From: a virus
Lineage: Duplodnaviria; Heunggongvirae; Uroviricota; Caudoviricetes
IMG/VR virus record: IMGVR_UViG_2675903468_000006
DNA: 45,417 nt
Direction: 5' to 3' (one strand)
Below, piece by piece: positions 40,594-45,417 of the stretch; positions within the stretch are counted from its first letter, which is position 1; each line of letters starts with the position of its first letter. Under the pieces are notes generated by a model. It saw only the letters and a list, made by a program, of their open reading frames with translations, made no database searches and was not told the DNA's origin. Position numbers and translations under genes: made by a program.

Positions 40594-41207
40594 TAGAGCA
40601 ACGCACCCCTGAATGGTTTGCTGCGCGCTGCGGCAAGGTCACAGCCAGTCGCCTGGCTGATGTCATGGCCCGGACTAAGTCGGGCTACTCCACCAGCCGC
40701 CAGAACTACATGGCCGAGCTGATTTGCCAACGGCTGACCGGGAAGCTGGAGGAAGGGTTTTCGAATGCCGCGATGATGCGCGGCACTGAACTTGAGCCAG
40801 TGGCACGCGAAATGTACGCGCTGAATGAGTTCAATGCGGAAATCACTGAAGTTGGACTCATCGATCACCCAACCATACCCGGATTCGCAGCCAGCCCGGA
40901 CGGACTTGTAAACGACGACGGGCTTATCGAAATCAAATGCCCCAATACCTGGACCCATATCGAAACGCTGAAAACCGGTGAACCAAAGCGCCAGTACATG
41001 CTGCAAATGCATGCACAGATGATGTGCACCGGGCGGAAATGGTGTGATTTCGTTAGTTTCGATGATCGCCTGCCGCCTGACCTCGCCTATTTCAAGAAGC
41101 GTATTCATTTCGATGAAGAGCTGGCGCGCGAAATCGAGTCTGAGGTTAAGACCTTCCTTGCAGATCTGGAATCTGAAATTCAGAAAATCACAGAGCGTGC
41201 AGCATGA
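40590..41207 (+). CDS. YqaJ-type viral recombinase exonuclease
   Basis: PD-(D/E)xK-like motifs (ASPDG, IEIKCP); overlaps RecT stop. Confidence 0.8.
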   Translation: MIEQRTPEWFAARCGKVTASRLADVMARTKSGYSTSRQNYMAELICQRLTGKLEEGFSNAAMMRGTELEPVAREMYALNEFNAEITEVGLIDHPTIPGFAASPDGLVNDDGLIEIKCPNTWTHIETLKTGEPKRQYMLQMHAQMMCTGRKWCDFVSFDDRLPPDLAYFKKRIHFDEELAREIESEVKTFLADLESEIQKITERAA

Positions 41208-41292
41208 AGGCACTCATCACCCGGGAGCTTAAAGCTCCTTTTTTATTGCTGGCGTTCACCTTCAACCGAATTAACCGACAGTTCCGGGAGCA

Positions 41293-41517
41293 TTGACCAT
41301 GGACATCATCGATACCGCAGCAGAGATTGAAGAGCTTCAGCGTAACGCTGCCCTTTCCGCTCACCGCATCGACCGTAATGCCGTTTCAGCGGAGCATTGC
41401 GAAGAATGCGACGAACCAATTCCCGAACCGCGGCGCGCTGCCGTTCCCGGCTGCCAGACGTGTGCAGAGTGCCAATCCGTCATCGAGCTGAAGAATAAGC
41501 AAAGGGGGTTGCAGTGA
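41293..41517 (+). CDS. TraR/DksA-family C4 zinc-finger protein
   Basis: CEECDEP...CQTCAECQ four-Cys arrangement, 74 aa. Confidence 0.6.
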   Translation: MTMDIIDTAAEIEELQRNAALSAHRIDRNAVSAEHCEECDEPIPEPRRAAVPGCQTCAECQSVIELKNKQRGLQ

Positions 41518-42182
41518 AAGAGCGCGGAATGATTTTCAACGGCGAGATGGTGCGCGCCATCCTCGACGGCAAAAAGACGCAGACGCGGCGCATCATGAAG
41601 GTTCAGCCGACTGATGGTTTCCACCCAACGCATAACGGTTACGATCTGGATTTAAACGCACACTGGTACACACCTGGCGTGATCGATAAAAACGGATACC
41701 TGCAACCTGCAAAGAAAGATGCATTTGGCGTTGCTGATGAGAATGAAGGCTATACCTGCCCGTTCGGTGCCGTCGGCGATCGCATCTGGGTGCGCGAAAC
41801 GTGGGCTGAAGCTGGTGCTGGCGCGCCGGACCTGAAACTTTATCGCGCGGATTACCCTGAGCATGTTCCAACTCATTACGAGAATGTGCCGCTGGCTGAT
41901 GAAATACGCTGGACGCCTTCGATTCACATGCCGCGCTGGGCTAGTCGTCTAACTCTGGAGATTACCGGAGTGCGAGTTGAGCGATTGCAGGCCATTACCC
42001 TTGGGGATATCTGTAAGGAAATCGGCTGCGGTCTTTACGACTTCCGCCCTGCTACTTATGGCTTTCAGGTGTGGGAAGAACTGTGGAAGTCCATCTACGG
42101 CGAAGAAAACTGGCAGGCCAACCCCTGGGTCTGGGTAATCGAATTTAAGGTGGTGCCCAATGTTCAGGATAATCCAGCCTAA
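41514..42182 (+). CDS. ASCH/PUA-like domain protein (tentative)
   Basis: N-terminal MIFNGEMVRAILDGKKTQTRR resembles the ASCH G-[KR]-K-T-x-T-x-R signature. Confidence 0.4.
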   Translation: MKERGMIFNGEMVRAILDGKKTQTRRIMKVQPTDGFHPTHNGYDLDLNAHWYTPGVIDKNGYLQPAKKDAFGVADENEGYTCPFGAVGDRIWVRETWAEAGAGAPDLKLYRADYPEHVPTHYENVPLADEIRWTPSIHMPRWASRLTLEITGVRVERLQAITLGDICKEIGCGLYDFRPATYGFQVWEELWKSIYGEENWQANPWVWVIEFKVVPNVQDNPA

Positions 42183-42474
42183 TACCTGGTACGCCGATCC
42201 CCACGGCGCGTCCTGCAAAATCCTCCGCGCTACCCACGAAGTAATCCACTACATCCGCAACGGTCGCACCTGCATCGCCAGCATTGGCCGCTTTCAACAT
42301 GAATTCGAGCCGCTGACCAAAGCACAGGCTGAGCGGATCGCCGAAGAAATCGAAACAGCAAAGCACATCGAAAAATTAAGGAGCATGAGACGTGATCGGA
42401 ATACTCAAGCCGGTACCGGAATCGCAATGGCCGGTACGATGCCACGACCCCAAGCGGAGCAACGTGTGGGCTAA
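42160..42474 (+). CDS. Hypothetical protein
   Basis: 104-aa ORF overlapping neighbours at both ends. Confidence 0.35.
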   Translation: MFRIIQPNTWYADPHGASCKILRATHEVIHYIRNGRTCIASIGRFQHEFEPLTKAQAERIAEEIETAKHIEKLRSMRRDRNTQAGTGIAMAGTMPRPQAEQRVG

Positions 42475-42733
42475 CTCTTACTTTCTTGTTCAGGAGTTTC
42501 AGGAAGAGAACGGTGTTATTCGCCTGACGGTGAACACCACCAGCATTGGCAGCTCTGGCCGGTGGAAGGATGGCATCAGTTGGGATGCATTGCAGGAGAT
42601 AAAGTCAGCCGTTGGCTATGGGGATCGGGATGCCGTGGAGATTTACCCGCGGGATTATGATGTGGTGAACGTGGCGAACATGCGCCACCTGTGGATTACG
42701 CCGGAGCCAATTAGCTTCGCCTGGCGGAAGTAA
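42392..42733 (+). CDS. Hypothetical protein
   Basis: GTG start with SD AAGGAG. Confidence 0.4.
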   Translation: MIGILKPVPESQWPVRCHDPKRSNVWANSYFLVQEFQEENGVIRLTVNTTSIGSSGRWKDGISWDALQEIKSAVGYGDRDAVEIYPRDYDVVNVANMRHLWITPEPISFAWRK

Positions 42734-42823
42734 ACAGCATCAGCGCATCGCCGTGTGGCGGGTGACATCCCGCCAAATAACGACGATCAACTGAACATCA
42801 ACACATTATATGTACATACGACC

Positions 42824-43915
42824 ATGAACATTCAGATCAAAACACTATCTGTCCGAATTAAAGACAAGCACGCAGCCGTTTTGCGGCAGATGGCCTTTGA
42901 GGTCAATCAGATCTTTAATCTGGCAAACGAGATAACCAGCGCAGCATACGGCAACGCTGGCTTTTTTGGCGCGCAAAAACCGCAATGGCTATCGGCGTTT
43001 GATGTTCAGAAACCGCTCCTTAAAGAGCGAAAAGAGCGCGGGTATACCATCCCCAGCCATACCGTACAGGAAATCGCAGCAATTCACGGCAAGGCACGGA
43101 AGCAATTTAAACGCTCTCGCTTACGCTGGCGAGTCAGTGGGGGATCTCGCCGTTCGTTGGGTTGGGTGCCGTTTAAAATAGGCAGCGCTGTCTGGAAAAA
43201 TGGCGCGGTGCGGTTCGCTGGCAGGATTTTTAATGTCTGGGATAGCTACGGCTTGGGAGGATTTAAATTCCGTGCTGGAAGCTTTTCAGAAGACAGCCGT
43301 GGACGCTGGTACTTCAATGTTTGCGTAGAGGTCGAAACTGTCCCATCAACGGCCACTTCCGCCGTGGGTATCGATTTAGGGCTGAAAGACTACGCCACCC
43401 CGTCAGAAGGTGATCCGCTGATTGCCGGTAGATTCTATCGAGATCTGGAGCCTGCATTAGGAAAGGCACAGCGTGCAAACAAAAAAGCCCGTGTACGCGC
43501 CATACACGCCAAAATTAAGAACCGCCGCAAAGATGCCCTGCACAAGTACAGCACGGCGCTGGTTAACAGCCATGCGGCAATATTCGTAGGCGACGCGAGC
43601 AGTAAGAAACTGGTTAAAACCAAAATGGCAAAAAGCATTTTGGACGCTGGCTGGTTCATGCTCAAAACACAACTGGAATATAAAGCGATTGCGCGGTCAG
43701 TGGTGTTTGAAGTGGTCAACGAAAGTTATTCCACCCAAGCTTGTTCGTGTTGCGGGGCTATCTCCGCCAACAGTCCGAAAGGTAGAGCAGGCCTGCGAAT
43801 AAGAGAATGGACTTGTTGTGAGTGCGGAACCACTCATGACCGCGACGTGAACGCCGCAAAGAACATTCTCGCGGCGGGGCATCGCCGTCTAGCTGTAGGA
43901 ATCCCCTTCCTTTAG
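42824..43915 (+). CDS. tnpB: TnpB (IS200/IS605 OrfB; RuvC-like RNA-guided nuclease family)
   Basis: RuvC-I GIDLGLKDYAT, zinc ribbon CSCCG...CCECG, RuvC-III HDRDVNAAKNI. Confidence 0.85.
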   Translation: MNIQIKTLSVRIKDKHAAVLRQMAFEVNQIFNLANEITSAAYGNAGFFGAQKPQWLSAFDVQKPLLKERKERGYTIPSHTVQEIAAIHGKARKQFKRSRLRWRVSGGSRRSLGWVPFKIGSAVWKNGAVRFAGRIFNVWDSYGLGGFKFRAGSFSEDSRGRWYFNVCVEVETVPSTATSAVGIDLGLKDYATPSEGDPLIAGRFYRDLEPALGKAQRANKKARVRAIHAKIKNRRKDALHKYSTALVNSHAAIFVGDASSKKLVKTKMAKSILDAGWFMLKTQLEYKAIARSVVFEVVNESYSTQACSCCGAISANSPKGRAGLRIREWTCCECGTTHDRDVNAAKNILAAGHRRLAVGIPFL

Positions 43916-43998
43916 GACGGGGAGGATGTCAAGCAACTGATAGCCAGTTATGAGCTGGCTATTGGGTGCGAAAGCACTGCTCAGTTATCCCCCATTTT

Positions 43999-44027
43999 GC
44001 CCGGCCCCGCGCCGGGCGCTCTTTTTC
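43999..44027 (+). terminator. Hairpin plus T-run after tnpB (terminator or right-end hairpin of the IS)
   Basis: GCCCGGC-CCCGC-GCCGGGC followed by gctcttttt. Confidence 0.5.
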
Positions 44028-44039
44028 TGGAGATCACAG

Positions 44040-44255
44040 ATGAATGACAGCATCCTGGTTACAAGCGAAATCCTTGCGCGCTACAAAATATCGCGCAGCA
44101 CGCTCTATTTCTGGAGCACTCCCGCACGTATGCCATCCAGCTTTTCATGCCCATTCCCGAAACCAACCATCCCCGGAAATCCGAAGCGCTGGCGTGAGTC
44201 AGAAATCAAGTCATGGGAAGACAAGGTCAACTTTGCTAAAGGGGATACCCAATAA
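44040..44255 (+). CDS. AlpA-family excisionase / transcriptional regulator
   Basis: ISRSTLYFW and PKRWRESEIKSWE resemble AlpA; SD GGAG; convergent with int. Confidence 0.65.
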   Translation: MNDSILVTSEILARYKISRSTLYFWSTPARMPSSFSCPFPKPTIPGNPKRWRESEIKSWEDKVNFAKGDTQ

Positions 44256-45417
44256 TCTCCTGCAAATGCTTCTGCCAGATATCCAGCCATTCATGCTGAT
44301 CGTCCATATAGTCATGAAGGTTGTATCTGGCCATAACCCCGCCCATCTGATGTCCGAGCAACTTTTCTATAACGTGTGGTGGAGCGCCAAGCTCGGACAG
44401 GCGCGTGGCCACCGTTCTCCGCAAATCATGTAATGACCACTCCTTCATTCCGTTCTTACGCACTACCTGCATTGAGTACGTCGAGACAAGCGTCTGCCCA
44501 GGTGGGACATCTTCTTTATCCCGGAACTGTGCTGGAGTCAGAACGTGCTTAGTGATTGATCCGCGTTGATGCTCTTGCAGAAGCCTGACCGCAGTATCCG
44601 GCAACGCACGACGAATAGTTTTACCGGTCTTATAATCCTCTGCCGGCACAGTCCAGGACCTTTCTTTGAAATCGAACCACTCCCATCTCGACTTTCTTAT
44701 TTCTGCGGCGCGGCATCCGGTTAGAATCATGAACCTGATTACCAGTTGTTGAGAGGGAGGCAGAGAGAAAAGAGTATCCCACACCTGCTTTATCTCACTA
44801 TCTGAAAGCCGCCTCTCCTTCATCTTCGCTGCTATACCGACATCCGATTTTCGTAACGACTCCAGTGGATTGGTTTTGATTACTCCCCTGTTGTGGCAGA
44901 ACCGGAAAGCACGCTTGGTCAGAGACAGCATCTCACCTGATATGACACTCCTCCCCATTGCATCGAAAACCTCAAGCCAGTTCGCCTTCACTGTCTGGTC
45001 CACAATAGCCTTCCCTAGCCGCGGGCTAATGTGCTTTTTGAAGCTTTTACCGTTCGCATCAATTTTAATGAGCCCCTCCGGGATACAGTAATGCTTCACC
45101 CAGTACTCATAGGCCTCATCGACTGTCAGCGCTTCTATTCTTTCAGCCTTCTCCACCAGCACTTTCTGCCGGGGATCATACCCCTCGCTCAACCACGCTC
45201 TGAACTGCTGTCTTCTGTCTCTCGCCTGAGAGAGTGAAATAGTTGGATAGTCACCAATGCTTAACTGCACAGGCTTGCCCTGCCAGCGATACCGATAGAA
45301 GAATGTGATAGAACCGGTTATGCTTAGACGCACATTCAGTCCGTTTGAATCAGAGAGAACCTCAACCTTCTCCCTGCGCTTTCCGAGCGACTTTCGTAAC
45401 TTAGTATCTGTGAGCAC
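44236..45417 (-). CDS. int: Tyrosine integrase (P4-like), start at or just beyond the window edge
   Basis: C-terminal HDLRRT ... LGH ... Y catalytic signature; N-terminus LTDTKLRK typical of P4-type integrases. Confidence 0.85.
   Translation of the reverse strand: MLTDTKLRKSLGKRREKVEVLSDSNGLNVRLSITGSITFFYRYRWQGKPVQLSIGDYPTISLSQARDRRQQFRAWLSEGYDPRQKVLVEKAERIEALTVDEAYEYWVKHYCIPEGLIKIDANGKSFKKHISPRLGKAIVDQTVKANWLEVFDAMGRSVISGEMLSLTKRAFRFCHNRGVIKTNPLESLRKSDVGIAAKMKERRLSDSEIKQVWDTLFSLPPSQQLVIRFMILTGCRAAEIRKSRWEWFDFKERSWTVPAEDYKTGKTIRRALPDTAVRLLQEHQRGSITKHVLTPAQFRDKEDVPPGQTLVSTYSMQVVRKNGMKEWSLHDLRRTVATRLSELGAPPHVIEKLLGHQMGGVMARYNLHDYMDDQHEWLDIWQKHLQEIIGYPL

Follow-up and report, generated by a model that had tools for sequence, protein, structure and literature searches.

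Within the 45,417-nucleotide (nt) stretch of the Caudoviricetes virus record IMGVR_UViG_2675903468_000006 analysed here (the window), a foreign segment at 42734–43932 carries a solo tnpB gene inside a prophage, directly upstream of an AlpA-like/integrase module, as an initial annotation made from the sequence had described. We propose, with a probability of about 0.6, that this segment is a 5′-truncated, tnpA-less derivative of an IS605-group (IS200/IS605) element that retains an intact tnpB, its omega RNA scaffold, and its right end. It would be immobile and without a role in excision control, and its RNA-guided action would be directed at sibling phages and prophages. More tentatively, and on balance doubtfully, the immobilised TnpB–omega RNA unit could serve as an RNA-guided homing or exclusion nuclease against relatives, with a lysogen or a coinfecting phage cutting siblings such as HK639 and either converting them, together with the neighbouring DUF7694 gene, or outcompeting them.

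The right boundary of the segment is sharply defined by comparison. Relatives of this sequence (E. coli, Salmonella, and Klebsiella plasmid copies, and phage copies) share window positions 42824–43932 only, and a near-invariant ...GGAATCCCCnnCCTTTAGGnnGGGGAGGATGTCAA closes the stretch beyond tnpB at 80 loci in other, mostly gammaproteobacterial, genomes. In the flanks of about 75 relatives, all similarity is gone right after GTCAA, that is, after ...GGAGGATGTCAA. The right end of the window copy is intact, comprising the terminal hairpin and the near-invariant family terminus GGATGTCAA. As Rfam has no family for the omega RNA of this group, we built a model de novo from the relatives. RNAalifold applied to 61 sequences predicts three terminal hairpins with many compensatory changes. 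In an alignment of 56 sequences that leaves out the window, 97% of the cells are paired and 16 of the 22 pairs have changed on both sides; none of 500 shuffles was as good, and structures slid by 1–3 columns pair at about 50%. The covariance model (R1) derived from these 56 relatives, window excluded, has one match in the window, the scaffold core listed in Table 1, at 154.1 bits (E 2e-47). The initial annotation had placed an omega RNA at the 3′ end of tnpB and named a covariance-model search as the way to check it; that search was positive, and the scaffold overlaps the 3′ end of the gene as expected. The scaffold probably reaches further 5′ than 43798. Its terminal hairpin, helix 4 of the model, shows double changes across relatives in 7 of its 8 pairs and holds the tnpB stop codon TAG (43913–43915) within its CTTTAG loop. 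This hairpin may double as the right-end DNA hairpin, two roles that covariation cannot separate.

Two side observations concern the scaffold. The stretch that encodes the second CxxC of the zinc ribbon (~43815–43838, columns 21–42 of alignment A3) can form a hairpin in most relatives, in a register that shifts by lineage (GAGTG/CACTC, GCTCAG/CTGAGC, GTGCC/GGCAC). It was omitted from the covariance model on account of these shifting registers and may be a further omega RNA stem that gap-free alignment misses. A permissive Rfam scan of 41000–45417 returned only a chance small nucleolar RNA match and a sub-threshold match to HgcC (RF00062) at 43754–43945, with 19 bits against a gathering score of 50. 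The 3′ consensus of HgcC, an archaeal family, is CccCGcccUUuAgggCGggGAGGAGGUCAG and closely resembles the right end of the tnpB family, CCCCnnCCUUUAGGnnGGGGAGGAUGUCAA; as a lead only, its sequence raises the possibility that HgcC may itself be a TnpB omega RNA.

With 43932 as the last position of the scaffold, the guide starts at 43933, in the first native phage DNA beyond the right end and 107 nt upstream of the alpA ATG at 44040. This relocates the guide from the place first suggested for it, near 44030–44050 at the start of the AlpA-like gene. With a length of 16 nt, assumed from other TnpBs, the predicted guide reads GCAACTGATAGCCAGT. Its only match in the window at up to two mismatches is its own locus, which is preceded by TCAA and thus has no target-adjacent motif (TAM).

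Unoccupied versions of this site are common among related phages. The TnpB-less relatives, namely three sibling prophages at yciA (L002–L004), phage HK639, Salmonella phage S9-5, and Enterobacter phage BHUENT6, read ...TGAC followed directly by GCAACTGATAGCCAGTTATGAGCTGGCTATTGGG... and then the terminator, with an open reading frame (ORF) lying between in HK639. By homology, all six have TGAC/GCAACTG at this point (GTAACTG in L002). TGAC followed by GCAACTGATAGCC is found in L003, L004, and L086–L088, and L002 has one target mismatch. In the unoccupied sites, the insertion motif directly precedes the sequence that the guide matches, and TGAC with the exact 16-mer occurs in at least 120 IMG/VR contigs; 107 of the 120 listed share 40 identical nt after TGAC, and 69 have window homology on both sides. 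Whichever gene closes the early-left operon takes its stop codon from the TGA of TGAC. Small genes that differ from phage to phage, 61–111 amino acids (aa) in length, occupy the slot between DUF7694 (or DUF4222) and GCAACTG; all end in TGAC (L128, L114, L105, L208, and others), so that their stop codon seems to be part of the conserved right-hand module. The slot looks like a moron-like variable site with fixed boundaries, corresponding to window positions 42734 and 43932.

What lies beyond the right end belongs to the phage. A perfect 8-bp inverted repeat, whose 5′ arm overlaps the guide, and an intrinsic-terminator-like hairpin with a T-run are native phage features, because TnpB-less relatives have them too. 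The inverted repeat is identical in HK639, S9-5, BHUENT6, and the sibling prophages L002–L004, and in 107 of 120 viral contigs among the matches listed, while the genes on either side vary; an equivalent hairpin and T-run sit at the same place in TnpB-less phages. The initial annotation was thus right that a downstream hairpin and T-run are present, but wrong to count them as part of the element. Its span for the element, 42734–44030, likewise starts at the exact point of divergence from other DUF7694 phages and ends about 100 nt too far, in native phage DNA. The phage terminator is the likely 3′ end of the primary transcript that bears the omega RNA. Proteins may bind the conserved stretch of ~40–65 nt (43933–43997) that follows the last early-left gene and precedes the terminator before xis/alpA; alternatively, it could encode a small RNA or mark a recombination or module boundary.

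The TnpB identity of the gene is already known from the Prokaryotic Genome Annotation Pipeline (PGAP), which labels it "RNA-guided endonuclease InsQ/TnpB family protein" on an E. coli chromosome of identical sequence. Our Pfam, PDB, and fold matches agree on a TnpB of the IS200/IS605 family. The protein matches OrfB_IS605 (PF01385; 48.8 bits, cut-off 30.5) and the Cas12f1-like_TNB zinc ribbon (PF07282; 77.7 bits, cut-off 26.3), and a phmmer search against the PDB matched ISDra2 TnpB at E 1e-23. Its AlphaFold2 model, built with 54 homologues and with a predicted local distance difference test (pLDDT) score of 81, finds its best fold match in the ISDra2 TnpB ternary complex 8h1j at a template-modelling (TM) score of 0.74. 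The RuvC-I, zinc-ribbon, and RuvC-III motifs first recognised in the 363-aa ORF are borne out, with D184, D341, and four cysteines present and conserved. The CxxC...CxxC zinc ribbon consists of C307/C310 and C331/C334, invariant in relatives except C331, which is nearly so. PGAP starts the gene at GTG 42755 (386 aa), as against ATG 42824 (363 aa) here. Of the 120 listed homologues, almost all have a length of about 363 aa, and DNA homology to all relatives begins at 42824, a pattern which suggests that the GTG start is probably an over-extension through the left-end hairpin.

A naive check of catalytic residues would score this protein as dead, with an E-to-G change at RuvC-II, although it falls in a class with a rearranged active site. 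In an alignment to ISDra2 TnpB, D191 corresponds to D184, E278 to G256 (motif IFVGDASS), and D361 to D341. The canonical D-E-D triad at ISDra2 positions D191/E278/D361 is therefore incomplete, its Glu position being Gly256, a point absent from the initial annotation. A conserved alternative, E300 in the motif VNExYSTQ, lies 44 residues downstream of G256 and, in the AlphaFold2 model, directly after strand 294–299, the next strand beyond the one ending in G256–D257. G256, E300, D184, and D341 are invariant in 54 relatives with identities down to 62%. Altae-Tran et al. 2023 (PMC10691335) described clades with Gly in place of the RuvC-II Glu and a compensating Glu elsewhere, in a RuvX-like arrangement. 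Jiang et al. 2023 named the class TnpB2, placed the alternative Glu about 45 residues away, and found it essential in a Fanzor, for which nuclease activity has also been shown; TvTnpB, a member of the TnpB2 class with the TAM NTGAC, is an active RNA-guided nuclease with no collateral activity (PMC10530073). The G256/E300 pair shows both hallmarks of a rearranged RuvC site, a Glu replaced by Gly or Pro and a conserved alternative Glu some 45 residues downstream. Because G256 and E300 are invariant in the clade and match the published rearranged active site, G256 is not an inactivation. Inactivating substitutions in the RuvC residues had been named as grounds for dismissing the nuclease; the naive alignment seems to supply one, and the clade data identify a known rearranged site instead. 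The idea of a dead nuclease of the TldR type, raised by the correspondence of E278 and G256, was ruled out by the clade alignment together with the rearranged-RuvC literature. Judged by its sequence, this TnpB carries the known TnpB2 active site, its residues fitting the class. We predict that it is active and infer that it cleaves DNA.

The left side of the segment is degenerate. Left ends of relatives run from the TAM through CA..GCG..AAA-hairpin 1-GATAGCG-hairpin 2, with the motif TNAY in front. The perfect upstream hairpin GGCGGG-TGACAT-CCCGCC pointed out in the initial annotation is indeed present, but it does not amount to a complete left end, being the counterpart of the internal hairpin 2 only. 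The window hairpin, GCGGGTGACATCCCGC, is identical at 14 of 16 positions to GCGGGCGACAGCCCGC of a Salmonella plasmid solo element (L089), the spacing from hairpin to start codon is 50 nt in the window and 51 nt in L089, and 5 of 1000 shuffles reach the score. Hairpin 2 is the sole significant similarity of 42734–42823 to the left ends of relatives; no hairpin 1-like (TnpA-type) motif occurs anywhere in the window, and the left-end terminus is also missing. The TGAC in the loop of the upstream hairpin (42765–42768) was considered as a left TAM and ruled out, as the hairpin aligns with the internal left-end hairpin of relatives.

The DUF7694 stop codon lies 23 nt upstream of hairpin 2, and the left junction, GTAA/ACAG, has no TAM. 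About 25 viral contigs have the same DUF7694 3′ end, with the stop TAA followed by TTTTACGCTGCG..., a ribosome-binding site, and another gene; from 42734 on, the window differs from these contigs. DUF7694 phages that have the target hold one small variable gene (61–111 aa) between DUF7694 and TGAC/GCAACTG, and because of this further gene the left junction is not explicable by a single insertion. No exact empty site, in which the DUF7694 stop would be joined directly to GCAACTG, was found among DUF7694-bearing phages.

Relatives with better-preserved left ends point to the parent of the segment. In Klebsiella plasmid copies (83% nt identity), a divergent Y1 tnpA precedes tnpB by 46 nt, and the left end beyond it reads TCAC and then CA(A/T)GGTTTTTCGCGGGAAGCCCC-hairpin 1-...-hairpin 2; a Salmonella plasmid copy (87%) has lost tnpA and stands as a solo element with its left-end terminus retained. 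Because the closest relatives with an intact left end carry a Y1 tnpA, the window copy is derived from an IS605-group element. The earlier label "IS1341-type" is imprecise given these 83%-identical relatives. Left-end flanks across the tnpB family follow TNAY and are mostly TTAC or TTAT; TCAC occurs at L012, L017, and the enterobacterial plasmid copies, TGAC at L027 and L062, and TAAT and TGAT are also seen. IS608 likewise ends in TCAA and inserts 3′ of TTAC. A right end at the conserved terminus, with a flank that follows TNAY in unoccupied sites, argues for a genuine TnpA-mediated insertion and makes random recombination an unlikely source.

Mobility has since been lost. A tblastn search with a relative's TnpA over the whole window gave noise only (best E 0.2), in agreement with the initial annotation that tnpA is absent, and the cognate tnpA and left-end DNA are absent from 5426 complete E. 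coli genomes at blastn sensitivity. The copy number per genome has a median of one place and a maximum of 2 across 47 E. coli genomes, and chromosomal copies are always in this prophage module. With no left end, no tnpA in the window, no cognate tnpA in E. coli, and a single copy in a single context, the window copy cannot transpose. We therefore consider it very improbable that the segment is a still-mobile, non-autonomous IS1341-type element moved in trans by a host TnpA. That reading could draw on the intact right end, with its hairpin and TCAA terminus, and on the existence within the family of solo-tnpB elements that have both ends and are multicopy in some genomes; it is opposed by the missing left-end terminus and TnpA-type left-end hairpin, the TAM-less left junction, the lack of a cognate tnpA in complete E. 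coli genomes, and the single-copy state of nearly all carriers. Elsewhere the TnpB family is actively mobile, as follows from its multicopy occurrence, with at least nine copies in one Psychromonas metagenome-assembled genome and at least five in Lampropedia hyalina. The Psychromonas terminal hairpin has a longer stem, CCACTAAAATCTTTGATTTAGTGG.

We infer that insertion followed by deletion is the simplest history, the intermediate of which was not found. An element would have inserted by the TnpA route 3′ of the TGAC closing the last early-left gene, abutting the conserved GCAACTGATAGCC... that precedes the xis/alpA terminator. Deletion or recombination would later have taken the upstream small gene, the TGAC, and the outer left end, leaving the remnant fused to the DUF7694 stop. 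From this position, TnpB would bind an omega RNA with GCAACTGATAGCCAGT as the guide; this RNA would be cut from the transcript of the tnpB gene itself, which would run to the phage terminator before being trimmed. Its own locus would be protected by having TCAA, not TNAY, before the target, and sibling phage or prophage genomes with TGAC and the target would be cut. In one outcome, repair from the TnpB-bearing genome would copy tnpB, and probably DUF7694 too, into the sibling, a form of "non-restorative homing"; homing of this kind into coinfecting phages or plasmids is a concept already discussed for IS605 (PMC13565253). In the other, the break would simply damage a competitor.

Several points weigh against this proposal. 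In a simple scan, the region upstream of tnpB yielded no sigma-70 consensus promoter. TCAC, and not TGAC, flanks the nearest relatives that have a left end, and if TnpB needs TCAC, sibling phages would escape cutting. The occupied site is rare (5 versus at least 120 contigs; 10 of 39 target-bearing E. coli genomes) and its copies are near-identical, so that any drive may be recent, weak, or absent. The 8-bp inverted repeat could sequester the guide in unprocessed transcripts. Lastly, a left junction one base past the DUF7694 stop needs an extra, unobserved deletion or recombination.

The chief rival is that the segment is an inert recent relic: the remains of an IS605-group element in one phage lineage, of no consequence for the phage whether or not TnpB is still active, whose ORF is intact only by recency. 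The occupied junction is present in 5 IMG/VR contigs, with identical flanks in all, and in 10 of 5426 E. coli genomes, these being 10 of the 39 that bear the target. Prophage tnpB copies are 99.8–100% identical, the most divergent differing by 2 nt, both non-synonymous; selection on this copy, expressed as the ratio of non-synonymous to synonymous substitution rates (dN/dS), is not measurable because only these 2 differences separate the copies. In E. coli A14 (NZ_CP028760), prophage decay cuts tnpB, and head genes and a partial Acb1 (anti-CBASS) gene are fused from window position 43042. E. coli plasmids of ~78 kb (H17–H20, e.g. NZ_CP076283, 36540–36892) have a "ykiE" region that matches window 43572–43932 at 77%; the match takes in only the final 360 nt before the right end, and the region may be a tnpB 3′ remnant still covering the omega RNA scaffold. 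The truncated left end, the lost tnpA, the occupancy of only 5 of more than 125 viral contigs, the near-identity of the copies, the decay in A14, and the plasmid remnants are all what a relic would leave. Yet all catalytic and zinc-binding residues are conserved, the omega RNA scaffold is complete, the right end is preserved to its terminus, and a perfect TAM plus target is common in related phages, so that an active enzyme would have substrates. The module has also already moved between two excision/attachment modules, yciA and dsdC: in E. coli L73 (NZ_CP033378), the DUF7694–tnpB module with 100 nt of flank is joined at ~44030 to a different xis by dsdC, with no integrase nearby. On this balance, we regard the relic as possible but unlikely. 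No E. coli genome was seen to hold both tnpB and an unoccupied target, which is uninformative, as only about 0.05 would be expected.

The initial annotation had suggested a domesticated nuclease or an effect on excision control. In its fullest form, TnpB–omega RNA would act as a TldR-like regulator or excision modulator that binds near alpA/int and alters expression of the excisionase or integrase. The gene does lie directly upstream of the alpA-like gene in the same orientation, it has lost mobility, and prophage-borne TldRs offer a precedent (10.1101/2023.11.30.569447). What defines TldRs, however, is that two or more RuvC residues are lost, often along with part of the C-terminus (10.1101/2023.11.30.569447), whereas this protein is full-length and conserves D184, E300, D341, and the zinc ribbon, with no decay of the TldR type. 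Its guide is the insertion flank, has its sole window match at its own TAM-less site, and lies upstream of the terminator, not at a promoter or start codon. The conserved alpA-upstream region is intact and organised as in TnpB-less phages. The guide lies clear of alpA, which leaves excision control without support, and we consider a regulatory role highly improbable.

The chromosome of E. coli strain 53 (NZ_CP048359) matches the window region at 100% identity, as do several other E. coli genomes; in strain 53, the locus is the left arm of a lambdoid prophage integrated beside yciA. The gene order is gam, bet, exo, TraR/DksA, "phage-like protein", DUF4222, DUF7694, tnpB, the AlpA-like helix-turn-helix gene, and a convergent tyrosine integrase. 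Identical records name the AlpA-like gene "helix-turn-helix transcriptional regulator" or "AlpA family", and its protein has no Pfam match at E ≤ 0.01. The AlpA-like gene (+) and the integrase gene (−) converge with a 20-nt overlap (44236–44255), which would permit antisense interference between both transcripts.

Table 1. Features of the foreign segment and its surroundings, in window positions.
Feature	Positions	Strand	Remarks
DUF7694 gene	42392–42733	+	Pfam PF24746, 58.7 bits; PGAP start 42464; last early-left operon gene before the insertion
Foreign segment	42734–43932	+	Left remnant, tnpB, omega RNA scaffold, right end
Left part of foreign segment	42734–42823	+	Degenerate left-end remnant and tnpB-proximal leader
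Hairpin GGCGGG-TGACAT-CCCGCC	42758–42775	+	Perfect 6-bp stem; counterpart of relatives' internal second left-end hairpin
tnpB coding sequence	42824–43915	+	ATG 42824 to TAG, 363 aa; Pfam, PDB, and fold matches
tnpB key codons	D184 43373–43375; G256 43589–43591; E300 43721–43723; D341 43844–43846	+	
Omega RNA scaffold core	43798–43932	+	Covariance model; overlaps last 118 nt of tnpB; ends at right end ...GGGGAGGATGTCAA
Terminal right-end/omega RNA hairpin TCCCCTTC-CTTTAG-GACGGGGA	43902–43923	+	Helix 4 of the model
Predicted guide GCAACTGATAGCCAGT	43933–43948	+	First native phage DNA beyond the right end
Native inverted repeat ATAGCCAG-TTATGAG-CTGGCTAT	43940–43962	+	Perfect 8-bp; not part of the element; 5′ arm overlaps guide
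Intrinsic-terminator-like hairpin and T-run	43998–44026	+	Hairpin 43998–44018, Ts to 44026; terminator scan
AlpA-like helix-turn-helix (excisionase-type) gene	44040–44255	+	Intact; upstream region undisrupted; by annotation in identical records
Tyrosine integrase	44236–45417	−	Pfam Phage_integrase and Arm-DNA-bind_3; annotation; chromosomal yciA comes next

If the proposed activity holds, this locus would be a natural case of TnpA-independent "non-restorative homing" of a TnpB element between phages. It offers a cleanly mapped TnpB–omega RNA unit in which transposition has been lost and a perfect guide kept against a sequence in more than 100 related phages. TnpA-independent homing or inter-phage exclusion is testable with available phages, as HK639 has the exact TAM and target.

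Among characterised systems, ISDra2 TnpB of Deinococcus radiodurans is alike in fold (TM 0.74) and Pfam domains, in an omega RNA that extends from within the 3′ end of tnpB to the right end, in a guide taken from the DNA flanking the right end, and in an empty-site target preceded by the tetra- or pentanucleotide of insertion. It differs in that the window TnpB is only 24% identical and has its RuvC-II Glu relocated (G256/E300), in its motif (TTGAT versus TNAY, TGAC here), and in that the window copy is without tnpA and left end. With the TnpB2 or RIIr proteins (PMC10691335; TvTnpB, PMC10530073), our protein shares the RuvC-II Glu-to-Gly change and an invariant Glu about 45 residues downstream (44 here), past the next beta strand. 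TvTnpB is archaeal and distant, its TAM is NTGAC, and its nuclease activity has been shown, whereas that of the window clade is predicted. The Klebsiella plasmid elements (NZ_CP144732, NZ_CP084987) and that of Salmonella pRSE40 (NZ_CP034699) are 83–87% identical in nucleotides over 42824–43932 and have the same right-end terminus and the same internal left-end hairpin. The Y1 tnpA and full TCAC-flanked left end of the Klebsiella elements are absent from the window copy, and pRSE40 keeps a left-end terminus with a damaged first hairpin, neither of which the window copy has.

Two further comparisons concern function. TldRs of enterobacterial prophages are alike in that a TnpB-family gene and its adjacent guide RNA are fixed in a temperate phage without a transposase; unlike our TnpB, they lack two or more catalytic residues, frequently together with the C-terminal zinc-finger/RuvC part. 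Their guides match host promoters (fliC); within the window, the guide here matches its own locus only. The free-standing homing endonucleases Seg and Mob of phage T4 resemble the locus in having a nuclease gene between conserved phage genes and a target in relatives that lack the gene. By analogy with their intronless homing and marker exclusion, co-conversion of neighbours or exclusion of competitors would be expected here as well (PMC13565253). The analogy is one of mechanism only, as recognition by Seg and Mob resides in the protein, whereas here it would reside in an RNA guide and a TAM.

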